Source: Clostridia bacterium (GTDB taxonomy: Bacteria > Bacillota > Clostridia > Christensenellales > Aristaeellaceae). Taken from it: a stretch of DNA of 64,000 nt. The notes beneath the pieces were generated by a model. It saw only the letters and a list, made by a program, of their open reading frames with translations, did not search any database and was not told the origin of the DNA. A program made the translations under genes and the position numbers. Location: assembly GCA_017469265.1 (NCBI GenBank), contig JAFUGS010000020.1, positions 87,808-151,807 on the forward strand, written 5' to 3'. Of the stretch, positions 1 to 61,784 are shown in pieces (the stretch's first letter is position 1; the number at the start of each line of letters is the position of its first letter).

Positions 1-1584
1 CAGATACGATTCCAGCGTGGGCGTATCGCTGTGCTCCGCGAATTCATGCACCGCCCCGAGAAATTCATCAATGTTCTCCACCCGGGACCGGGCTTCGTCG
101 CTGGTTTCCCGGGCGTACTGCTCCCGCAGGCCGGTTTTTTCAATCAGCGTGGAAACAAAATCCTCCAGGGGCATGGTGTCCTTCATGGCGCTGAGGAGTG
201 TCATCAGCATGAAGAAATCCGTCACGCATTTCCGGGGCCTGCTGGCCAGGCCTTCCGGCAGGTCGCTCAGCGCGCTGTACAGCGGCATGTCATTTTCCTG
301 CGCGTGATGAATCAGTTCCTGCACCGTGCTGTCACCAATGGCCCGCCTTGGCACATTGATGATCCGGCGCAGGCTCATGTCATCCGCCGGATTCACGATC
401 ACCCGCAGATAGGCGATAATGTCACGGACTTCCTTGCGGTCGTAGAATTTCTGTCCGCCAAACACCTGGTACGGAATGCCGGCCCGGTGCATGATCTCTT
501 CCAGCACACGGCTCTGGGCGTTGGTGCGGTAAAGAATCGCCATATCTCCCAGGCTGTCCCCCGCCCGGGTCAGAGAGCGGATATTGTCCGCAATCCAGGC
601 TGCTTCATCTCTTTCATCCTCCGCGGTGAACACCTGGATCTTCTCTCCTTCGCCCATCTGGGTCCAGAGCTTCTTATCCTTCCGCGACGCGTTGTTGGCA
701 ATCACCTGGTTGGCCGCGTCCAGAATGGTGGAGGTAGAGCGGTAATTCTGCTCCAGCTTGATAACCTTCGCGTCCGGGTAGTCGTTTTCAAAATCGAGGA
801 TGTTCTGAATGTCCGCGCCGCGCCAGCCATAGATGCTCTGGTCATCATCCCCAACGACGCAGAGGTTCCGGCTTTTCGCAGTCAGCAGGCGCACCAGCTC
901 ATACTGGGCCTTGTTCGTATCCTGGTACTCGTCCACCAGGGCATATTGGAAGCGCTGCTGATAGCTCTCCAATACAGGGGGATGATCCGCCAGCAGCAGC
1001 AGCGTCTTCAGCAGCAGGTCATCAAAATCCAGCGCGTTCAGGGTCTTCAGCCGCTTTTCATATTCCACCATTATGTCATGGATCTGGCTGGAGCGATGAT
1101 CCCGCGGGGAATGCATGAACCATTCATCCGGGCTCAGCAGCCGGTTCTTCGCGTCGCTGATCTTCCCCTTGACCTCCCGGACGGAAAGGTATTTGTCATC
1201 GATGTTCAGCCGGCGGAGGATTTCCTTCAGCACCGCCGTCTGATCGTCATCGTCATAGATGGCAAATGTCCGCTGGTATCCCAGCTTTTCGATATCCCTG
1301 CGCAGAATGCGCGCGCAGGTGGAATGAAAGGTGCTGATCCAGGCGTCTTCCGCGGCCTCCGGCCCCACCAGCTGCGCCGTCCGGTCCTTCATTTCTCTGG
1401 CCGCCTTATTGGTAAAGGTTAGCGCCAGAATATGCCATGCCTTCACCCCATGGTCGATTAAATTGGCTACCCGATAGGTCAGGGCCCGGGTCTTTCCGCT
1501 GCCGGCTCCCGCCAGAATCAGCACCGGCCCGTCCAGTGTTTCCACAGCTAAACGTTGTTCCTTGTTCAGAGCGCTTAAATCCAT
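1..1584 (-). CDS. pcrA: ATP-dependent DNA helicase PcrA/UvrD (3' part runs off the window start)
   Basis: Hand translation from ATG at 1584: MDLSALNKEQRLAVETLDGPVLILAGAGSGKTRALTYRVANLI...ILALTFTNKAAREMKDR...ISTFHSTCARILR (SF1 motifs Q, I, Ia). The last codons in the window (LGAVHEFAEHSDTPTLESYL) are in the same frame. Not in the ORF track because there is no stop in the window. Confidence 0.96.
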   Translation of the reverse strand, partial: MDLSALNKEQRLAVETLDGPVLILAGAGSGKTRALTYRVANLIDHGVKAWHILALTFTNKAAREMKDRTAQLVGPEAAEDAWISTFHSTCARILRRDIEKLGYQRTFAIYDDDDQTAVLKEILRRLNIDDKYLSVREVKGKISDAKNRLLSPDEWFMHSPRDHRSSQIHDIMVEYEKRLKTLNALDFDDLLLKTLLLLADHPPVLESYQQRFQYALVDEYQDTNKAQYELVRLLTAKSRNLCVVGDDDQSIYGWRGADIQNILDFENDYPDAKVIKLEQNYRSTSTILDAANQVIANNASRKDKKLWTQMGEGEKIQVFTAEDERDEAAWIADNIRSLTRAGDSLGDMAILYRTNAQSRVLEEIMHRAGIPYQVFGGQKFYDRKEVRDIIAYLRVIVNPADDMSLRRIINVPRRAIGDSTVQELIHHAQENDMPLYSALSDLPEGLASRPRKCVTDFFMLMTLLSAMKDTMPLEDFVSTLIEKTGLREQYARETSDEARSRVENIDEFLGAVHEFAEHSDTPTLESYL

Positions 1585-49566: not shown

Positions 49567-49599
49567 GTTCGGGTATCCTTTTTGGGAGGTGCTTTTGTC

Positions 49600-50169
49600 G
49601 TGCCCGTTTCCCTGGTTCTGGCCTCCTCCTCGCCCCGCCGCCAGGAGCTTCTGACCCTGGCCCGGATCCCTTACGAGGTGGACGCGCCGGAGGTGGATGA
49701 ATCCTGTGACCTGCCGATCGCGGAGGCCGTGGCCGAGCTGAGCCGGCGCAAGGCTTCCGCCGCGCTTTCGCTGCATCCGGGCCGCTTTGTTCTGGCCGCG
49801 GACACCCTCGTCGCCCTGGATGGGGAAAAGCTGGGCAAGCCCGCCTCCGAGGCGGAAGCCTGCGCCATGCTGCGCCGTCTGTCCGGCCGGACCCATACGG
49901 TCTGCACCGGGGTTACGGTGGTGGATCCCCAGGGCATCCTCCGCACGGAAGTGGATACCTCCCTTGTCACCTTCGACCCCATGCGGGAGGAGGAAATCCA
50001 GGCCTATGTCGCCACCGGGGAGCCCATGGACAAAGCCGGCGCCTACGCGGTGCAGGGCCAGACCGCCCTGTGGGTCCGCCGCCTGGAAGGCAGTCCTTCC
50101 GGCGTCATGGGGCTTCCGCTGGACCTGGTCCGGCGGCTGCTGGAACAAAGCGGTTATTCCTTTTTCTGA
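49600..50169 (+). CDS. maf: Maf family nucleotide pyrophosphatase
   Basis: GTG start after SD GGGAGG. LVLASSSPRRQELL, AADT, GKP, HTVCTG, DKAGAYAVQG. Confidence 0.93.
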   Translation: MPVSLVLASSSPRRQELLTLARIPYEVDAPEVDESCDLPIAEAVAELSRRKASAALSLHPGRFVLAADTLVALDGEKLGKPASEAEACAMLRRLSGRTHTVCTGVTVVDPQGILRTEVDTSLVTFDPMREEEIQAYVATGEPMDKAGAYAVQGQTALWVRRLEGSPSGVMGLPLDLVRRLLEQSGYSFF

Positions 50170-50202: not shown

Positions 50203-51234
50203 ATGCCTTTTGCGGCTCCTGATATTGGTATCGATCTGGGCACCTCCAACACCTGCGTCTACGTGCGCGGCCGGGGCATCGTGGTGAACGAGCCCACCCT
50301 GGTGGCGGTGGAGCGGGAAAGCCGGCACACCGTGAAAGCGGTGGGCGATGAGGCCCGCTTTCTCTACGGCCGCAGCCCCGATCAGCTCATGACCATCTCC
50401 CCCCTGCGCAACGGCCAGGTTTCGGATTTTGACATGACCGAGCTGCTGCTGAAGTATTTTATCCGGAAAGCCATCGGCATCAGCTACCTGAACAAGCCCC
50501 GGGCCATCGTTTCCGTCCCCTGCGGGCTGGATGACGTCAACCGGAAGGCCCTGACCTCTGCCGTCCGCTACGCCGGCGCCCGGCACGTTTTTCTGATCGA
50601 AAAGCCTTTTGCCGGCGCCATCGGCACCGGTCTGCCGGTCTATGATCCGGTGGGCAACATGGTGGTGGACATCGGCGCCGGGACAACGGACATCGCCGTC
50701 ATTTCCCTGGGCGGCCTGGTGGTTTCCCAGAGCGTTCCCATCGGTGGGGACCGGATGGATGAAGCGCTGATGAATTACCTCAAACGGGAATGCAACATCA
50801 TCGTCGGCCGGCAGACAGCGGAAAAGGTCAAGAAGGATCTGGCCACCGCCATGCCCCTGGAGGAACCCCGTTCCATCCTGGTTCGCGGGATCAACCAGCT
50901 GAACACCTCCGCCGGGACGATCTCCTTCACCTCGGACCAAGCCTACGCCGCTGTCCGGGAGCCCTGCGCCGGTATTATCAAGGCCATCCGCCAGGTACTG
51001 GAAAAAACGCCGCCGGAGCTCTGCGCCGACATCATGCGCGGCGGCATCCATCTGACCGGCTGCGGCAGCATGCTTTTCGCCCTGGATCAGTATATTTCTG
51101 AAAAGCTGGATATTCCCGTGCTGCTGGCCCGGGATCCCGGGGACTGCTGCATCCTGGGCATCGGATACCTGACCGAGAACATCCAGCTGGTTACGCCCCA
51201 GGATAAGCGTTCCGTTCCCGTCGCGCAGGGATAA
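50203..51234 (+). CDS. mreB: Rod shape-determining actin homologue MreB (divergent nucleotide pocket)
   Basis: IDLGTSNT, NEPTLVA, DIGAGTTDIAVISLGG, GGDRMDEA, AEKVK, TPPELCADI. Located directly upstream of mreC. Confidence 0.93.
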   Translation: MPFAAPDIGIDLGTSNTCVYVRGRGIVVNEPTLVAVERESRHTVKAVGDEARFLYGRSPDQLMTISPLRNGQVSDFDMTELLLKYFIRKAIGISYLNKPRAIVSVPCGLDDVNRKALTSAVRYAGARHVFLIEKPFAGAIGTGLPVYDPVGNMVVDIGAGTTDIAVISLGGLVVSQSVPIGGDRMDEALMNYLKRECNIIVGRQTAEKVKKDLATAMPLEEPRSILVRGINQLNTSAGTISFTSDQAYAAVREPCAGIIKAIRQVLEKTPPELCADIMRGGIHLTGCGSMLFALDQYISEKLDIPVLLARDPGDCCILGIGYLTENIQLVTPQDKRSVPVAQG

Positions 51235-51335: not shown

Positions 51336-52844
51336 ATGGCCCGTTTCAAGCTCCGCCCCCGGGAAAAAAGTAAGGATTCCCGACCCACCGTATCCGATGA
51401 TTTTATCTATGACGAGCCCCGGGCGGCGGATGCCTCCATCGCTTCAGACACGCCGGAGGAAGCGCTGAAAAAGCTCCGGGGGGGCAATCCCCCTCCGAAG
51501 GATCCCGCGTCCGCGGAACCGGAGACGGAGGAAACCCCTTCCGCGAAATCCCCAAAATCCTTTGACGCTTTCCGGAAAAAGACCCGGACCGCCTCTCCTG
51601 TCCAGCTGGATGACGATCTGCAGCCCATTCCCTCCCACCGCCGCGGGGGCGGGCATCCCCGGCTCCGCGTCTTCTTCCTGGTGCTGATCACCTTTGTGCT
51701 GCTCCTGTTTGTAGGGGCCTACGTCTACCACCGGATCATTCCCGCCGCCCCCTATCTGGGGGATCCGGAGATCATGGTGGGCGAGGCGGTTTCCCCCGTA
51801 CAGGAATTTTTCTCTTCCCTGACGGAAACCGTGGCGGGGCTCTTCCGCTCCTATAAGCTGCGCTCCAACATCGAGGCGGAATACAACGCCCTTCGGGCGG
51901 AAAATGAGCAGCTGGTATATAAAGCCATGCTGGCGGACGAACTGCAGCAGACGCTCTCCCAATATGAGGACCTCAGCGATGAGATTGCAGCCAACGCGAA
52001 CATGCAGCCCATTGTCTGCACGGTCATCGGAAAGTCCGATTCCAATTATTTTTCCACCTTTACCATCAACAAGGGCTCGGATGACGGGTTGGAGGATTAC
52101 ATGGCCGTCACCATCTCCGGCTCCCTCGTGGGCTATACGGAGAGCGTCCAGCCCTCCTCCGCCACCGTACGGACCATCATCGACTCCGAGGCTTCCATCG
52201 CCGCGCTGATTTCCTCCTCCCGGGATCAGGGCACCGTCCGCGGTACCCTGGGTATCGACGGCACCGCCATGTGCCGCATGTATTACCTGCCGGATGACAA
52301 TCTTCCCCGTCCCGGGGACACGGTGGTCACAAGCGGTGTCGGCATGTCCTTCCCCAAGGGGATCCCCATCGGCACCGTCCGGGAAAGCACCCGCGGGATG
52401 GACTCCAACAAGCAGTACATCGTGCTGGAGCCCCTGGCGGATTTCCAGCATCTGGAGTACGTTATCGTTCTTCGCTATAAGCCCGTGGCGGAGGCCATAC
52501 AGGGCCGGGAAAACGGCCGGACCAACGTGGAGCTGGTACCGCTGGAAAGCGCCCGGCCCTCGCCCGAGGTTCCGCAGATCGCCTCTTCCCTCTTCGAGTC
52601 TCAGACGACCCCGGATCCGAACGCGACGCCCACTCCCTCCCCGGAACCTACGGAGACGCCGGAACCCACGCCGGAGCCCACGCCGATTCCCACCCCCACG
52701 CCGGAAATCCACAACCTGGAATATCAGGTGGTAAATCCCAGGGGAGAACCGACGCCCACGCCTACGCCTTCCCCGGTGCCGACGCCCACGCCCTATATCA
52801 CCCCGGACCCGGATACCATGACCTTCGAGGAGGACGACGGATGA
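51336..52844 (+). CDS. mreC: Rod shape-determining protein MreC with long N- and C-terminal extensions
   Basis: TM helix, coiled coil (ALRAENEQL), FTINKGSDDG, LVG, DTVVTSGVGMSFPKGIPIGTV, LEPLADFQHLEYVIV. 502 aa. Confidence 0.92.
   Translation: MARFKLRPREKSKDSRPTVSDDFIYDEPRAADASIASDTPEEALKKLRGGNPPPKDPASAEPETEETPSAKSPKSFDAFRKKTRTASPVQLDDDLQPIPSHRRGGGHPRLRVFFLVLITFVLLLFVGAYVYHRIIPAAPYLGDPEIMVGEAVSPVQEFFSSLTETVAGLFRSYKLRSNIEAEYNALRAENEQLVYKAMLADELQQTLSQYEDLSDEIAANANMQPIVCTVIGKSDSNYFSTFTINKGSDDGLEDYMAVTISGSLVGYTESVQPSSATVRTIIDSEASIAALISSSRDQGTVRGTLGIDGTAMCRMYYLPDDNLPRPGDTVVTSGVGMSFPKGIPIGTVRESTRGMDSNKQYIVLEPLADFQHLEYVIVLRYKPVAEAIQGRENGRTNVELVPLESARPSPEVPQIASSLFESQTTPDPNATPTPSPEPTETPEPTPEPTPIPTPTPEIHNLEYQVVNPRGEPTPTPTPSPVPTPTPYITPDPDTMTFEEDDG
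52606..52815 (+). repeat. Pro/Thr-rich low-complexity repeat inside mreC
   Basis: Encodes TPDPNATPTPSPEPTETPEPTPEPTPIPTPTP and EPTPTPTPSPVPTPTPYITPDP. Confidence 0.9.
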
Positions 52845-53455
52845 AAAAGCTGCTTCGCCGTCTCTTTCAACCGGGTTCTTTCCGGAAATATTTTGTGTTT
52901 GTGCTGATGCTGCCCCTGGGTTTTCTCTGCCAGGTCTGCGTCATGCCCTATGTGCGCCCCTTCGGCGTCACCCCTAATCTGCTTTATGTGCATATCGCCA
53001 TCATCACCGTTGCCTACGGGCGGCTCCAGGCCTTCTGGGCCGGGCTGGTCTACGGCTTCCTGATGGAAATCCGCCTGCCCTCCGTGCCTTTTGTGCAGCT
53101 GGCCATCTATCCCCTTTCCAGCCTGTTCGTCTCCTTTGCCTTCGCGGACAAATCCCTCCGCCGGCTGCAGATGGACCGGGCCCTGAAGCGGAAATCCCGG
53201 GAGATGCCTCCCCTGCTGCGGACGGTGCTCTGCGCCATGGTAAATGTGCTGGTCTACGAAATCATCAATGTTGTTTACATCTATCTGGGGGGTACCAGCC
53301 TGAGCCCGCAGCATTTTATCCGGGCACTGCTGGATGTGATCGAAACCGGCGCGCTGGCCTTTTTCGTGGCCCTGGTGCTGCGTCCGGTCATCCTGGGCCG
53401 GCAGAAGCCGGAACCGGTGCTGAAAAATCAGCCCATCGTCTTTGGAAAAAAGTAA
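52841..53455 (+). CDS. mreD: Rod shape-determining protein MreD-like membrane protein
   Basis: Hydrophobic, with PNLLYVHIAIITVAYG...AGLVYGFLME. ATGA-coupled to mreC and followed by the PBP gene. Confidence 0.75.
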   Translation: MKKLLRRLFQPGSFRKYFVFVLMLPLGFLCQVCVMPYVRPFGVTPNLLYVHIAIITVAYGRLQAFWAGLVYGFLMEIRLPSVPFVQLAIYPLSSLFVSFAFADKSLRRLQMDRALKRKSREMPPLLRTVLCAMVNVLVYEIINVVYIYLGGTSLSPQHFIRALLDVIETGALAFFVALVLRPVILGRQKPEPVLKNQPIVFGKK

Positions 53456-53488: not shown

Positions 53489-55993
53489 ATGCGCATGGAG
53501 AAGAAAAAGAAGATTCGTCCCGGGCTGGGCCGGTATATCGGCTTTCTCGTGGCGCTCTTTGCCATGTTTGTTTATCTGGTTTCCGGCCTGGTAAACCTGC
53601 AGCTGCGCCAGGAGGACTATTATCAGGAGAAGGCGGAATCCACCCGCACCAAGACCATCGCCCTCCGGGGCAAGCGCGGCAACATCGTCTCCTCCGACTC
53701 GGTGATCCTGGCGGAGGATGAGCTGATCTACAATGTTACCTTTTACAAGGACGCCTCCACCGTTTCCGCCGCGTCCTACAGGGCCTATACCGCCTCCATC
53801 ATCGATACCATCGGCATCGTGGAGAAAAACGGCGGCGAAATGGCCATCGATTTCGTCATCCGGCGGGACGAGGATACCGGGGACTGGGTCTTTAACTTTG
53901 GTTCCGGTGTGTCTGACTCGGTGCTGGCCACCCGGGAAAACCAGTGGCGCTCCAATAACTATCTGACCAACCTGAACCGTTACGAAACGCCGGCCCAGTG
54001 TATCGACCGGCTGAAAACCCGCTATCAGATCACCGACGACATCGATGAGGAAACCATGCTTAAAATCATGGCCATCTACTCGGAGATGCAGATGAACATC
54101 TTTAACTCCCAGCCCATCGTCATCGCCAAGGATGTCAAATACGAAACCGTCATCGAGATTGAAACCCGGTCCATGATGCTGCCGGGCATGGAGATCGAGA
54201 TCGGCACCAAGCGGGTTTATCCCCGGTCCACGCTGGCTTCCCAGATCATCGGGTACACCGGCGCCATTCCCTCCCGGGCCACCTGGCTGACCCTGCAGGC
54301 CAAGGGATATTCCTACAATGACACCATCGGCCGGGACGGCATTGAGTCCTCCATGGAGGACTGGCTTACGCAGAATTCCTCCCTTCGGAAGGGAACCAGG
54401 GTCGTGGAACGGGATCAGATGTCCAAGGTGGTCCGGGAGCTGAGCTACACGGAGCCTCAGGACGGCAACAATGTCAAGCTGACCCTGAACGCGGCCTACC
54501 AGGTGGTGGCCGAGCGGGCCATCGCCAGCAATGTGTCCACCACCCGGGATCTGCAGGAAAAATACCTGGCTTCCGATTCCTGGCTGGAGGCCAACAAGAC
54601 GGATATCCACAACCGGAACTGGGCCACCTATCCCCTGGATCTGGCGGAGCATGGCTGCCTCATTGTGCTGGACATGCAGTGCCGCGTGCTGGCCATGGCC
54701 AATTATCCCACCTATGACCTGAACGCCCTGGTGGCCGGCGGCAAGGACGCCATGGCCATCCTGGGGGACAGCCGGAATCTGCTGCTGAACTACGGCATCC
54801 ACGCCCGGGGAACCCCCGGCTCCATTTTCAAGATGGTTACCGGTACCGGCGCCCTCACCGAGGGGGAGCTGCTGCCCACGGAGCGGATCTCCGACGGCGG
54901 GTACTATACAAAGTACAACGCGGATAAATCCACCGCGCCGAAGTGCTGGATCAACCAGAATTACATCTACAAGCACGCCAACCAGACCATCGTGGACGGG
55001 CTGACCAACTCCTGCAATTACTTTTTCTACGAGCTGGGCAGCCGCCTGGGTGAGGAAAGGCTGTACCGGTACGCCTCTCTCTACGGGCTCACCTCCAAAA
55101 CCGGCATCGACCTTCCCGGCGAGGTACGCTCCGTGGTCGGCAGCCAGAACACGCTGTATGATCCTTCCAAGCCCATGAACGAAGCCAACCAGGATACCTC
55201 CCTGCCCATCATCGTCTTTAACTCCATCAAGACGCACCTGAAGAACTGCGGCGCTTCCCGGAACATTGAGTACGATGACGAGCGTCTCTCCGTCTGCGCC
55301 AAGCGCCTGATGGACATGGCCGTCAACTACAACGAATCCGAATGGCTGGACAACATGCGCACCATCCTGATGGAGGAGCTGAACATGACCAAGGAGATGG
55401 TCTACCTCCAGTCCGTCATCGGGGATACCTACAATTACATGAACGATATTAAATGGGGCGGCGGCCAGACCATTCTGACCGGCATCGGCCAGTCCGTCAC
55501 CGTGCTGACCCCCATCGCGGTCGCCCGGTATGTGTGTACGGTTGCCAATGGCGGCTATCTGTACAACGTGTCCCTGATCGACTCCATCTCCTCCCCGGAG
55601 GGCGAAATTCTCTCCCAGCGGGAGCCTACCCTGATCCATCGGCTGGATAAGGCGGATGAATATCTGCCCCTCATCCGGGAAGGGATGAAGGGCGTGGTTG
55701 ACGAGTCCGGTACCGCCGGTAAGTATTTCCGCCGCTGGCCCTACACGGATCAGATTGCCGCGAAAACCGGAACCGCGCAGGTAACGAAGATCGACCTGGA
55801 AAACAACTCCTGGTTCGTCTGTTTCGCCCCCTTCGAAAACCCGGAGATCGCCATCGCCTGTTTCATTCCCAACGGGTACTCCGGTTCGGAAGCGTCCAAG
55901 GCGCCCCGGGATTTCATCGAATGGTACATGGAGCAGAAGACCCTGCGCTCGGCGGAGGATATCCTCCCTGTACCCAACAGCCTGACCCCCTGA
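53489..55993 (+). CDS. mrdA: Class B penicillin-binding protein (PBP2/MrdA-type transpeptidase)
   Basis: N-terminal TM, RGKRGNI, GRDGIE, and transpeptidase motifs SIFK (SxxK), SCN (SxN), KTG. 834 aa. Confidence 0.9.
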   Translation: MRMEKKKKIRPGLGRYIGFLVALFAMFVYLVSGLVNLQLRQEDYYQEKAESTRTKTIALRGKRGNIVSSDSVILAEDELIYNVTFYKDASTVSAASYRAYTASIIDTIGIVEKNGGEMAIDFVIRRDEDTGDWVFNFGSGVSDSVLATRENQWRSNNYLTNLNRYETPAQCIDRLKTRYQITDDIDEETMLKIMAIYSEMQMNIFNSQPIVIAKDVKYETVIEIETRSMMLPGMEIEIGTKRVYPRSTLASQIIGYTGAIPSRATWLTLQAKGYSYNDTIGRDGIESSMEDWLTQNSSLRKGTRVVERDQMSKVVRELSYTEPQDGNNVKLTLNAAYQVVAERAIASNVSTTRDLQEKYLASDSWLEANKTDIHNRNWATYPLDLAEHGCLIVLDMQCRVLAMANYPTYDLNALVAGGKDAMAILGDSRNLLLNYGIHARGTPGSIFKMVTGTGALTEGELLPTERISDGGYYTKYNADKSTAPKCWINQNYIYKHANQTIVDGLTNSCNYFFYELGSRLGEERLYRYASLYGLTSKTGIDLPGEVRSVVGSQNTLYDPSKPMNEANQDTSLPIIVFNSIKTHLKNCGASRNIEYDDERLSVCAKRLMDMAVNYNESEWLDNMRTILMEELNMTKEMVYLQSVIGDTYNYMNDIKWGGGQTILTGIGQSVTVLTPIAVARYVCTVANGGYLYNVSLIDSISSPEGEILSQREPTLIHRLDKADEYLPLIREGMKGVVDESGTAGKYFRRWPYTDQIAAKTGTAQVTKIDLENNSWFVCFAPFENPEIAIACFIPNGYSGSEASKAPRDFIEWYMEQKTLRSAEDILPVPNSLTP

Positions 55994-56010
55994 GAAAGGA
56001 GGACGCGGTT

Positions 56011-56829
56011 TTGTCAAAAACATATCTGGTCGCCTCCGGCAAAGGGGGCGTCGGAAAATCGACCGTGACGGCCTGTCTGGCCGTCCTGCTGGCCCGGAAG
56101 GGGCGCCGCGTGGTTCTGATGGACGCGGACATCGGCCTTCGGTCCCAGGATCTGCTGCTGGGGCTGGAAAGCTCCGTGGTCTATGACCTGGTGGATGTGG
56201 CCCAGGGCCGCTGCCTGCTGAGTCAGGCGCTGCTTCCCTGCCCGGGAACGCCCAACCTGGAGCTGCTGCCCGCGGCGCAGTTTGCCCGCTGCAGGGATCT
56301 GGATCCGCGGAAGCTGAAAAAGATGCTCTCTCTCCTGCGGAAGGAACATGATTTCATTTTGATCGACTGTCCCGCCGGACTGGAGCGCGGCCTTCGGAAC
56401 GCTTTGAACGCCGGCATGCGCAATGAGACCCTGATTCTCGTCACGCCGGATGATCTCTGTATCCGCGGCGCGGAACGGGTTGCTGCCCTGATCGCGGAAA
56501 AAAACCTTCCCCGCCCGCAGCTGCTGGTTAACAGACTGGATCAGGATCGGGTTTTCACCCATGAGATGTACAGCGCCGCAACCATCTCCCAGGTGCTGGA
56601 TCTGCCGCTTCTGGGAGAGGTGCCGGAGGATTCCGCCGTCTATACGGCTCAGCTGCGACACCGGCTGACGATCGATTACGACTGCGAAGCCCGGAATGCC
56701 CTTCAGCGGATCGCCGCCCGACTGGATGGGGAGAATCCGCCTTTGCCGGATTACGGAAGGCGGAAAACCTCCTTTTTCCGGAAGCACTTTCCGCCGGCTC
56801 TGAAGGAGGTGCCTGATGAACGGAACTAA
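56011..56829 (+). CDS. minD: MinD-family ATPase (divergent)
   Basis: TTG start after SD AAAGGAGG. SGKGGVGKST, DADIGLR, VVYDLVDV, DCPAG, and a C-terminal amphipathic SFFRKHF. Confidence 0.85.
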   Translation: MSKTYLVASGKGGVGKSTVTACLAVLLARKGRRVVLMDADIGLRSQDLLLGLESSVVYDLVDVAQGRCLLSQALLPCPGTPNLELLPAAQFARCRDLDPRKLKKMLSLLRKEHDFILIDCPAGLERGLRNALNAGMRNETLILVTPDDLCIRGAERVAALIAEKNLPRPQLLVNRLDQDRVFTHEMYSAATISQVLDLPLLGEVPEDSAVYTAQLRHRLTIDYDCEARNALQRIAARLDGENPPLPDYGRRKTSFFRKHFPPALKEVPDERN

Positions 56830-58045
56830 TGTGGAGCGCCGGGCCTATCGGGCCCACACGGATCTGGTGCTGATCTTTCTGGTGGGCGTCATGTCCCTCA
56901 TGGGTATCGTTGCCGTCTGTGTCGCCACCTACACGCCGGATTCCAGCCCGGATATCTCCTTCCTGAATCACGTGGTGGAATCCTCCTACACCATGCGCCA
57001 GTGCCTTTTTGTGCTGGTGGCGCCGCTGGTGGTGGGTTTTATCATGGTGATTCCCTATGATCTGATCTTCCGCCGGGCGGAGCTGATCTACTGGGCCATG
57101 GTGGTGCTGCTGGCGGTGGTTACCGTCTTCAACCGGGCCCAGGGCGTGAAGGCCTGGCTGGACATTATCTGGGGATATACGATTCAGCCTTCGGAGTTCG
57201 CCAAGCTGTCCATGATTCTGATCCTGGCAAAGCAGCTGTCCCGGTCCAACCGGCCTATGGCCACCTTCCGCTCCTTTTCCCAGGTTATGCTCACAGTCAT
57301 GATTCCCGCGGTTATCATTCTTGCGGAGGGCGAAACCGGTTCCATGCTGGTGATCGTGTTTCTCACCGCCATCATGATGTACTTCTCCGGCTGCAGCCTG
57401 AAGATGCTGGGCATTCTGGCGGGCATCGCCGTGCTGGGCATCCTGTCCATCTACGGCCTGATGGTGGCCACCGGTTCCACGGACTACCGCCTGGCCCGGA
57501 TCTCCGGCTTCCTGAACCCGGAGCTCTATTCCTCCTCGGACTCCTATCAGATTCTCCAGTCCCAGATGGCCATCGGCTCCGGCGGCGTCACCGGCATCGG
57601 CATGTTTGTGGACGGTTCCATGAGCCAGCTGAACTACGTGCCCGCGGACTGGACGGACTTTATCTATGCCACCATCGGGGAAGCCTGGGGCTTTGCGGGC
57701 TGTATGACCGTTCTGGTGATGTATCTGCTGATCCTGCTGCGCATGCTGTACCTGGCCTATTACACCCGGGACAAATTCGGCCGGCTGATCATCTGCGGCG
57801 TGCTGGGGATGCTGCTGTTCCATGTGTTTGAGAACATCGCCATGACCCTGGGCCTGATGCCCATCACTGGCATTCCCCTGCCCTTCCTGTCCTACGGCGG
57901 CTCCAACATGGTTACCAACATGGGCGGCATCGGCCTGGTGCTGAACGTGACCCGGAACCGTTCCCTGTCCGACGCGGTCAGCACCCCCCAGACCTTTTAC
58001 AATCCCTATCGTTTTTCCACCCGATTCAAAACACGTCCCTGGTAA
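56816..58045 (+). CDS. rodA: SEDS glycosyltransferase RodA
   Basis: IQPSEFAK, AIGSGG, TDFIYATIGE, GLMPITGIPLPFLSYGGS. Confidence 0.92.
   Translation: MNGTNVERRAYRAHTDLVLIFLVGVMSLMGIVAVCVATYTPDSSPDISFLNHVVESSYTMRQCLFVLVAPLVVGFIMVIPYDLIFRRAELIYWAMVVLLAVVTVFNRAQGVKAWLDIIWGYTIQPSEFAKLSMILILAKQLSRSNRPMATFRSFSQVMLTVMIPAVIILAEGETGSMLVIVFLTAIMMYFSGCSLKMLGILAGIAVLGILSIYGLMVATGSTDYRLARISGFLNPELYSSSDSYQILQSQMAIGSGGVTGIGMFVDGSMSQLNYVPADWTDFIYATIGEAWGFAGCMTVLVMYLLILLRMLYLAYYTRDKFGRLIICGVLGMLLFHVFENIAMTLGLMPITGIPLPFLSYGGSNMVTNMGGIGLVLNVTRNRSLSDAVSTPQTFYNPYRFSTRFKTRPW

Positions 58046-59957: not shown

Positions 59958-61784
<1,827 letters not shown>

Follow-up and report, generated by a model that had tools for sequence, protein, structure and literature searches.

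The window, a stretch of 64,000 nucleotides from a bacterium of the Christensenellales, carries an operon in the order maf-mreB-mreC-mreD-pbp2-minD-rodA (Table 1). This gene order links mreB to the elongasome, and the linkage of mreB to mreC, mreD and other elongasome genes is common to 61/61 genomes of the same GTDB family. By profile HMM, the mreB product is an MreB, with 369.6 bits against Pfam MreB_Mbl (PF06723; cut-off 27) and 381.9 bits against NCBIfam NF010539 (cut-off 293); with TIGR00904 it reaches 359.7 bits, slightly below the cut-off of 365.75. The scores for MamK (NF040964, 65.8 bits, cut-off 400) and BeeR (NF053558, 64.7 bits, cut-off 530) fall below their family cut-offs, and the protein is not assigned to the MamK-, BeeR- or ParM-type actin-like proteins. 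Its ligand-free AF2 model has a pLDDT of 92.2 and a pTM of 0.88, and the top 25 Foldseek matches are all MreB/Mbl with TM-scores of 0.84-0.93, which places it in the actin/ASKHA fold with its subdomains IA, IB, IIA and IIB. The original prediction of a full-length, bona fide MreB at the elongasome locus therefore holds, on its length, HMM scores, model confidence and mreCD-pbp2-rodA neighbours.

Table 1. Genes of the mreB operon, the nucleotide-pocket features of MreB, and dnaK in the window
Feature	Position	Strand	Remark
maf	49582..50169	+	upstream gene of mreB operon
mreB, type 1 (mreC-linked paralogue)	50203..51234	+	343 aa, Lys at catalytic Glu position
phosphate-1 loop D11-L-G-T-S-N	50233..50250	+	intact
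S104 (Caulobacter C110)	50512..50514	+	lineage-specific change, gamma-phosphate/A22 pocket
K134, codon AAG	50602..50604	+	aligned to Caulobacter E140 / Geobacillus E136 / E. coli E143
A159 (Caulobacter G165)	50677..50679	+	phosphate-2 loop DIGAGTT
T161-T162-D163	50683..50691	+	retained Thr-X-[D/E] half of catalytic motif (Caulobacter T167, E169)
C287	51061..51063	+	adenosine loop LTGCGSML; position variable (G/S/A/C/D/N) in sub-clade
C316 (Caulobacter V324)	51148..51150	+	lineage-specific pocket change
mreC	51336..52844	+	502 aa, long N-terminal extension; Pfam core at residues 230-379
mreD	52841..53455	+	weak match, TIGR03426 31.1 bits, below cut-off
pbp2 / mrdA-type transpeptidase	53489..55993	+	
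minD	55921..56829	+	ORF as listed; true start may be further downstream
rodA (FtsW/RodA/SpoVE family)	56816..58045	+	
dnaK	59958..61781	-	retains IINEPTAA

The catalytic motif E...T-X-[D/E], kept in 95.8% of non-Spiroplasma MreBs (PMC9597168), is broken in this protein: its Thr-X-Asp half is present, and its Glu is replaced by Lys134. The codons at 50581-50631 read RHVFLIEKPFAGAIGTG, and HMMER aligns this stretch without gaps to 'IEEPFAAAIG' of Geobacillus MreB (7ZPT) and 'LIDEPMAAAIG' of Caulobacter MreB (4CZE); because the alignment is ungapped and P135 fixes the register, K134 falls on the second acidic residue (E136/E140). In the AF2 model, a strand at 128-133 is followed by a helix at 134-142, of which K134 is the first residue. 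We considered whether E133 could be the true catalytic residue. This is ruled out by the alignment without indel, by the strand/helix boundary and by the variation of position 133, which in the EEP motif is ordinarily the first of the two acids, among E, D, A and S within the clade of lysine-bearing MreBs (K clade). Thus, the lysine at the catalytic Glu of an elongasome MreB, as read from the sequence at the outset, is confirmed; DnaK in the same window retains its Glu, again as first described.

E-K-P is found in 121/121 sequences (the window MreB and its 120 nearest protein clusters, at 73-91% identity), a set that includes the cultured rod-shaped isolate Aristaeella lactis, whose orthologue shares 76% identity with the window MreB. 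The K134 codon is AAG in independent rumen MAG orthologues and AAA in one, and dN/dS among orthologues is 0.06-0.22. The expectation that IEKP would be conserved in related genomes with dN/dS below 1 is borne out, and K134 is maintained under purifying selection. A sequencing error, or a residue unique to one assembly, is excluded by its presence in independent MAGs and an isolate genome. On a broader version of this doubt, the gene would be a decaying or non-functional MreB, or its lysine an assembly artefact, which would suit the several unusual positions of the nucleotide pocket (A159, C287, N113) and the many small-genome families of the order whose strongly divergent MreBs likewise lack the Glu. 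However, the reading frame is intact, the model and Pfam match (370 bits) are strong, the mreCD-pbp2-rodA operon is conserved, and cultured relatives are rods, Aristaeella species being listed at 1-3 x 0.2-0.5 um in a comparison table (PMC12694931). Together with dN/dS, the conservation of the lysine effectively refutes this explanation, to which we give next to no weight.

The substitution was initially described as a feature of one gene, and this proved too narrow. Across 61 genomes of this GTDB family, which represent 60 genera, Glu occurs in 0/61 mreC-linked MreBs, the residue being K in 30, S/T in 19 and Q/H/G/A in 12. The window MreB branches within the Christensenellales type-1 MreBs; lysine-bearing MreBs form a clade of 30-31 rows (FastTree local support 98-99), and the Q/H/G/A states belong to basal genera, with K fixed in the crown clade. 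Among the mreC-linked MreBs, T167 (Caulobacter numbering) is present in 51/61 and an acid at 169 in 61/61, and both are strictly retained in the K-type paralogue. An orphan second paralogue is affected as well: it mostly carries R or K at the Glu position (31 rows), and it keeps the catalytic T167 in just 10/58, with hydrophobic residues otherwise. In all, 55/61 genomes (at least 50 genera), that of the window among them, are without any Glu-bearing MreB. The suggestion that the window MreB copolymerises with another paralogue is half borne out: a second paralogue does exist, on contig 29 of the same genome at 137-1189 (minus strand), but it is devoid of the Glu and of the catalytic Thr alike. 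This 92%-complete genome therefore offers no canonical, hydrolysing MreB with which a copolymer could form. The two paralogues may copolymerise with each other.

Loss of the Glu is not unique to this family: within the order, 18 or more further families lack it too. These have small genomes with one divergent maf-linked MreB each. Their proteins (105-280 Pfam bits) are divergent throughout, and in some of them the catalytic position is aligned with less certainty. In the tree they group with the long-branch paralogues of the family under study, possibly by long-branch attraction. We also considered a link to RodZ, considering that E. coli E143A partly suppresses rodZ loss. RodZ_C (PF13464) was found neither in the window genome nor in any of 201 genomes of the order, including those of families with canonical MreB; its absence is thus non-discriminating, and the idea that Glu loss tracks RodZ absence was dropped.

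Around the lysine, the ATP-binding residues are in place. The equivalents of Caulobacter D16, T19, D162, D192, E213 and K216 are all retained, and the nucleotide motifs are present as D11-L-G-T14, D156-I-G-A-G-T161, G286, D186, E207 and K210, with A159 and C287 lying inside loops. The other peculiarities first noted in the pocket, namely DIGAGTT, LTGCGSML and DDVNRKA (N113 on Caulobacter E119) beside an intact DLGTSNT, are each present in the translation, and C287 and N113 are restricted to the genus or cluster. When group-specific columns were scanned, no acidic residue that could stand in for the Glu turned up elsewhere in the pocket of the K clade. The Aristaeella sub-branch alone has gained a Glu, in its phosphate-1 loop (DLGTEN); the window MreB has Ser there.

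The lineage-specific changes cluster in the pocket. The Caulobacter C110 column is C in 44/45 outgroup sequences and T, S or A in the K clade, and the V324 column is V in 45/45 of the outgroup and A, T or C in the K clade. In all, four of the ten lineage-specific columns (C110, E140, G165, V324) are among the nine A22-insensitive residues near the terminal phosphate (p = 4.8e-5). A22 and MP265 bind E140 and the gamma-phosphate and close off the channel through which Pi leaves (PMC4051119); in Caulobacter, G165A confers A22 resistance (PMC3137890), and E. coli E143A is A22-resistant. The pocket changes (C110S/T, E140K, G165A, V324A/C) might have arisen under selection for resistance to a natural inhibitor, small molecule or protein, acting at the A22/phosphate-exit pocket in the rumen or gut, with any altered ATP turnover as a by-product, and the match to Caulobacter insensitivity sites does extend to the identical C110S and G165A. 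However, the gamma-phosphate site is lined by these very residues, so any alteration of the hydrolysis chemistry would be expected to give such an overlap; no natural inhibitor of the A22 pocket is known for rumen or gut habitats, and the literature consulted yielded none; and the parallel T167 loss in the second paralogue, as well as the specific fixation of K/R, would be left unexplained. We regard this origin as improbable.

What the loss of the Glu would mean can be gauged from other MreBs. Members of the family have ATPase activity and polymerise with ATP into antiparallel double filaments bound to the membrane. In Caulobacter MreB, the attacking water is held by E140 and T167 (PMC4051119). 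The Geobacillus E136A mutant has its ATPase lowered 55-fold and shows the highest Tm with ATP bound; it polymerises normally, and its polymers persist at limiting ATP (bioRxiv 10.64898/2026.07.23.740262). E. coli E143A is viable and rod-shaped with longer polymers, and Caulobacter E140A/G is viable (PMC3137890). The literature thus agrees with the earlier statement that mutating this Glu blocks hydrolysis and stabilises polymers, with the addition that cells stay viable and rod-shaped. The experimental precedents at this position are all E-to-A/G, or E-to-D in Spiroplasma MreB3.

We propose the following mechanism, which builds on the sequence and these precedents. The window gene would encode the working elongasome MreB of a Christensenellales rod from the rumen. 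In this lineage, the gamma-phosphate and phosphate-exit pocket appears to have been rebuilt by the change of E140 to Lys together with those at C110, G165 and V324. With nucleotide- and Mg-binding residues kept, ATP binding and membrane polymerisation would persist. No carboxylate would now hold the attacking water, and the gamma-phosphate would have a cationic side chain beside it; hydrolysis and/or Pi release would therefore fall far below the rates of canonical MreB, leaving the filaments ATP- or ADP-Pi-like and long-lived. That the window MreB binds ATP and polymerises, that it hydrolyses ATP or releases Pi slowly and that its filaments last long is, in our view, an evenly balanced proposition. 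Residual slow turnover would probably run through the retained Thr161-X-Asp163 pair, and the orphan paralogue, with K/R and the catalytic Thr lost, is probably fully hydrolysis-dead.

The main rival to slowed turnover gives Lys134, and the Arg/Lys of the second paralogue, an active role as a catalytic, transition-state-stabilising or gamma-phosphate-clamping residue. The cation would contact the gamma-phosphate or orient the water, and a Thr161-Asp163 relay would take the proton; the ATPase would then be near normal or faster, its chemistry changed and not lost. Lys71 in Hsc70, which is essential for hydrolysis, and the Lys/Arg fingers of other NTPases offer parallels for a catalytic cation, although the Hsc70 lysine comes from a different structural element than the Glu140 equivalent. 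A basic residue is specifically fixed, with K in about 30 crown mreC-linked MreBs, R/K in 31 orphans and K or R at position 133 or 134 in 49/61 mreC-linked MreBs. If only the loss of hydrolysis were at stake, any residue would serve, as Q/H/G/A do in the basal genera; the fixation of K or R/K in the crown clade points to a positive, possibly catalytic role of the cation, and the strict retention of T167 and acid 169 in the mreC-linked paralogue suggests that hydrolysis chemistry is still selected. The motif-less Spiroplasma MreB3 shows very slow Pi release, which is restored by restoring the Thr-acid pair alone, even without the Glu (PMC9597168); by analogy, the Glu may be less indispensable than E136A suggests. 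Eukaryotic actin also hydrolyses ATP with Gln instead of Glu at this position (Gln137; cited in PMC3137890), which means that the water-activating position need not be Glu. On the other side, K/R in the orphans accompanies the replacement of T167 by hydrophobic residues, which fits lost rather than new chemistry; the basal members with G/A/Q/H indicate that the lineage passed through, and tolerates, uncharged states; and no MreB, ParM or MamK with a catalytic Lys at the Glu position is known from the literature consulted. A catalytic lysine is thus conceivable but rather doubtful, and slowed turnover remains our preferred reading. The kept Thr-X-Asp pair and the specifically conserved basic residue together suggest that the site is still functional.

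MreBs without the catalytic Glu are already known, both natural (Spiroplasma MreB3) and engineered (viable E-to-A mutants), and the window protein differs from each. With canonical MreB (Geobacillus stearothermophilus 7ZPT/7ZPU, Caulobacter crescentus 4CZE-4CZM, Thermotoga maritima 1JCE) it shares 44-45% full-length identity, the fold, the phosphate-1, phosphate-2 and adenosine motifs and the mreBCD linkage; it departs from them in the Lys for Glu and in the changed C110, G165 and V324. With the laboratory mutants (Geobacillus/B. subtilis E136A, E. coli E143A, Caulobacter E140A/G and Spiroplasma citri MreB5 E134A), it shares the altered position. Those proteins bind ATP and polymerise, with an ATPase reduced 55-fold (Geobacillus E136A) or strongly, polymers that are longer or more persistent, and viable, roughly rod-shaped cells. 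They are, however, engineered or drug-selected Ala/Gly changes in otherwise canonical proteins, whereas in the window lineage a cation is naturally fixed across dozens of genera, the pocket is co-adapted and the other paralogue has undergone a parallel change. Spiroplasma MreB3 (7E1C/7E1G), which is among the Foldseek matches, is a natural motif-less MreB that polymerises and releases Pi very slowly. It has Asp/Lys/Ser at the three motif positions and belongs to a wall-less swimmer with four other, motif-bearing MreBs and without mreCD linkage; the window MreB has Lys/Thr/Asp (K134/T161/D163) and 28% identity to 7E1G, which sets it outside the MreB3 type, and is the elongasome MreB in a walled rod that has no canonical one. 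Eukaryotic actin (Gln137/His161) and Hsc70 (Lys71, Glu175) have the ASKHA fold in common with it but are different families, and neither has Lys at the Glu140 equivalent.

The Glu-to-Ala laboratory mutants, which polymerise into more stable filaments and show only mild shape defects, are artificial. The Aristaeella family offers a natural, long-lived counterpart to them, in dozens of genera with a complete elongasome and with cultured rods, and thus a chance to examine, in nature, whether rod building by MreB depends on ATP hydrolysis. More tentatively, we raise the possibility that in a whole family of gut and rumen Firmicutes, walled and rod-shaped, rods are formed without an MreB that has the canonical hydrolysis site, the Lys/Arg on which both paralogues have converged serving either as a gamma-phosphate clamp that locks filaments in the ATP/ADP-Pi state, in which case it would be chemically like the isothiouronium group of A22, or as the basis of a novel Lys/Arg-based hydrolysis among polymerising actins. 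The family is also predicted to be naturally insensitive to A22-class MreB inhibitors. With either role of the cation, rapid, Glu-dependent ATP turnover by MreB would be dispensable for rod morphogenesis in nature.

The mreB gene of the window is an intact reading frame of 343 codons, and its product scores 369.6 bits against Pfam MreB_Mbl and 381.9 bits against NCBIfam NF010539 (cut-off 293). As the original prediction had it, the gene lies at the mreBCD operon, in the co-oriented order maf-mreB-mreC-mreD-pbp2-minD-rodA. The stretch around the catalytic site reads RHVFLIEKPFAGAIGTG and contains the AAG codon of K134. Elsewhere in the operon, the minD ORF as listed begins inside pbp2 and shares its last 73 bases; the true minD start is therefore probably farther downstream. 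As listed, the operon has no space for minC or minE. The Pfam core of the 502-residue MreC is confined to residues 230-379, which implies long N- and C-terminal extensions relative to typical MreC.

Coordinates of the features discussed (window positions unless a contig is named)
Feature	Position	Orientation	Remark
maf	49582-50169	co-oriented with mreB	first listed gene of operon
mreB	50203-51234	+	343 aa
mreB, codons around the catalytic site	50581-50631	+
mreB, AAG codon of K134	50602-50604	+
mreC	51336-52844	co-oriented with mreB	operon, after mreB
mreD	52841-53455	co-oriented with mreB	operon, after mreC
pbp2	53489-55993	co-oriented with mreB	operon, after mreD
minD	55921-56829 as listed	co-oriented with mreB	between pbp2 and rodA
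rodA	56816-58045	co-oriented with mreB	operon, after minD
dnaK	59958-61781
Second MreB of the same assembly (locus L002)	contig 29, 137-1189	minus	orphan paralogue
Tandem MreBs of genome G028 (L247/L252/L253)	G028 contig 29, 3882-6984		three paralogues

The placement of K134 at the catalytic Glu position is borne out. Residues 5-330 of the window MreB align (HMMER) without gaps at the catalytic region to Geobacillus MreB (7ZPT, TIEEPFAAAIG) and Caulobacter MreB (4CZE, LIDEPMAAAIG), and in this register, anchored by P135, the second acidic residue (Geobacillus E136, Caulobacter E140) is matched by K134. In an AlphaFold2 model with an alignment of 47 sequences as input (mean pLDDT 92.2; 96 across residues 131-140), K134 opens helix 134-142, straight after strand 128-133, and the best 25 Foldseek matches of this model in the PDB are all MreB or Mbl, with TM-scores of 0.84-0.93. 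Position 133, where the usual [ED]-E-P motif has its first acid, is E, D, A or S within the K clade, the crown clade of mreC-linked MreBs with Lys at the Glu position. Considering the register, the model and this variability, the idea that E133 is the true catalytic residue is without support. The other sequence features first described are also present: DIGAGTT (A159), LTGCGSML (C287) and DDVNRKA, with N113 at the position of Caulobacter E119. The phosphate-1 loop DLGTSN is intact, and the DnaK of the window keeps its INEPT-type Glu (IINEPTAA).

A sequencing error, or a residue unique to this assembly, is excluded by the 120 nearest protein clusters (73-91% identity to the window MreB), all of which carry E-K-P and which stem from numerous independent metagenomes of rumen and gut as well as from the isolate Aristaeella lactis. 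The dN/dS ratio lies below 1, at 0.06-0.22 (Nei-Gojobori; ten unsaturated of the eleven orthologues compared as DNA), and the Lys codon in the eleven is AAG everywhere except for one AAA. Decay or artefact as the origin of K134 can, for practical purposes, be set aside for the window MreB. An Aristaeella-like sub-clade (P0054-P0121), 73-79% identical to the window MreB, keeps E-K-P. Its phosphate-1 loop reads DLGTEN, with Glu in place of the canonical Ala (Ser in the window MreB), and its adenosine loop LTGDGA[RK]L, with Asp in place of the canonical Gly (Cys in the window MreB); both newly acquired acids may form pairs with K134.

The changes extend to the pocket around the terminal phosphate. 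Dye et al. reported nine residues whose mutation leaves Caulobacter least responsive to A22 (D16, Q26, C110, I123, E140, D162, G165, T167 and V324), eight of which cluster near that phosphate (PMC3137890). Before looking at this list, we had fixed a rule selecting alignment columns with conservation of 85% or more in the canonical outgroup and a consistent difference in the K or K/R clades. It yielded ten columns, four of which (C110, E140, G165 and V324) are shared with the nine A22 residues (hypergeometric p = 4.8e-5). The window MreB has S104, K134, A159 and C316 at these positions, and C110S and G165A are A22-resistance substitutions in Caulobacter (PMC3137890). Another of the nine, T167, has been lost from the orphan paralogue, with only 10 of 58 proteins keeping it. 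Selection by a natural inhibitor of the pocket would be one explanation, possible but unsupported, and we consider it improbable. The nucleotide- and Mg-binding residues D16, T19, D162, D192, E213 and K216 are retained. The data show that the window MreB is a functional protein under selection, with its gamma-phosphate and Pi-exit pocket rebuilt around a cationic side chain and its nucleotide binding preserved.

Every MreB from 61 genomes (60 genera) of the window's GTDB family was collected, together with MreBs from another 25 genomes of the order, outside this family, and all were aligned with the two reference structures; the genomes are mostly MAGs. Two old paralogues occur in the order: type 1, with maf and mreC on its flanks, and type 2, an orphan. 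Both types have [ED]-E-P and GGGT[TSCA][ED] in 45/45 sequences from those sampled families whose MreBs are near-canonical. In the window's family, none of the 61 mreC-linked copies has Glu at the catalytic position; the residue is K in 30, S in 11, T in 8, Q in 5, A in 5, and H and G in 1 each. A second deep group of the family has the basic residue one position earlier ([KR]-[ST]-P), and K or R at position 133 or 134 is found in 49 of the 61. Orphan copies have R (25), K (6), S (11) or other residues (9), Glu being kept in only seven sequences from six genomes, and 55/61 genomes are without any Glu-bearing MreB. In trees made with FastTree only, the family's type-1 proteins form a single clade (local support 100), whose basal genera have Q, H, G or A and whose crown of about 30 rows (support 98-99), the window MreB inside it, has K throughout. 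In the type-2 clade, E persists in the same basal genera and gives way to S or N in the genera that follow and to K/R in the crown. Judged from these residue states, the two paralogues changed in parallel within the same lineages; independent events are few because the clades are nested, and we make no statistical claim of co-evolution.

The window's own assembly (2.57 Mb, 92% complete) has exactly one further MreB, an orphan paralogue of 350 aa (Pfam, 358.9 bits) with the motifs LLDKNIATALG and VDISAGGTD. Here too Lys stands in for the catalytic Glu, and Gly replaces the first Thr of GGGTT (Caulobacter T167); no Glu-bearing MreB was found in this 92% complete assembly. A copolymer with another paralogue, as had been proposed, is possible, but the partner would not be a canonical hydrolysing MreB, its active site being even more degenerate. 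A DUF512/radical-SAM-like gene adjoins this second mreB.

Loss of the Glu is not limited to this family. The aligned position holds S, N, T, G, A, H, K or W in at least 18 more families of the order, often with T167 lost too (loci L247-L267). These families have mostly small genomes (0.9-2.3 Mb) with a single maf-linked MreB, divergent throughout (105-280 Pfam bits vs 370-455 in the window's family), so that the site alignment is less certain for some. Two sampled genomes of the order (G029 and G019) gave no MreB match at E <= 1e-25. In none of the 201 sampled genomes of the order, most of which have MreB, was the RodZ C-terminal domain (PF13464) detected; E. coli and B. subtilis genomes, used as controls, scored. 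Among the best 150 50%-identity cluster representatives, about one third are without Glu, Q being commonest and K occurring in 13, a set biased by its similarity ranking to a K-bearing query. The tandem MreBs of G028 have I-E-E-E-[IV]-K-A in the catalytic-Glu region and adjoin a separate maf-linked MreB reading LMESVIAAGLG. MreB-like proteins of Megasphaera spp. (L106-L121), with IETAAAAALG and GGGTTN, have Thr in place of the catalytic Glu and Asn in place of E169. In MreBs from Patescibacteria/Saccharibacteria MAGs (L084-L092, L105, L122) the motif is [IV]-K-E-P; the Lys precedes the catalytic Glu, which is kept.

When Caulobacter MreB is polymerised, the water attacking the gamma-phosphate is held in place by E140 and T167; A22/MP265 binds to E140 as well as to the gamma-phosphate and closes the phosphate exit channel (PMC4051119). 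The E...T-X-[D/E] motif occurs in 95.8% of 4832 non-Spiroplasma MreBs; Spiroplasma MreB3, whose three residues are D/K/S, is very slow to release Pi, and the Thr-acid pair alone restores release (Takahashi et al., PMC9597168). In Geobacillus E136A the ATPase falls 55-fold and the melting temperature with ATP bound is the highest; polymerisation and lipid binding are normal, and the polymers persist under limiting ATP. The corresponding B. subtilis mutation causes minor shape defects only (bioRxiv 10.64898/2026.07.23.740262). Caulobacter E140A/G mutants grow normally (PMC3137890). In E. coli, a chromosomal E143A mutation leaves cells viable and rod-shaped, makes them resistant to A22, lengthens the polymers and partly suppresses rodZ loss. 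Our literature search found no paper linking MreB catalytic-site variation to Christensenellales.

The functional reading given in the original prediction is supported in part. By analogy with E136A, E143A and MreB3, the most likely consequence of K134, which we hold at about even confidence, would be a strong slowing of hydrolysis and/or Pi release, with longer-lasting filaments. A real rival, though a less likely one, is that a cation beside the gamma-phosphate could stabilise the transition state or orient the water. Two observations speak for it: Lys or Arg in particular became fixed in the crown group, although basal genera tolerate neutral residues, and the mreC-linked paralogue strictly keeps the Thr-X-Asp relay (an acid at 169 in 61/61; T167 in 51/61 family-wide and in all rows of the K clade as delimited here). 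As a related mechanism, we infer that the Lys ammonium or Arg guanidinium could occupy the site of the A22 isothiouronium cation, between E140 and the gamma-phosphate, as a built-in phosphate clamp.

Cells of both Aristaeella hokkaidonensis and A. lactis are thin rods measuring 1-3 x 0.2-0.5 um (PMC12694931). The MreB of A. lactis is of the E-K-P type, so the K-type protein supports rod morphogenesis. The finding is a natural, family-wide replacement of the MreB catalytic Glu by Lys/Arg in two paralogues, with co-evolved changes in the pocket, and it occurs in walled rods with cultured representatives.
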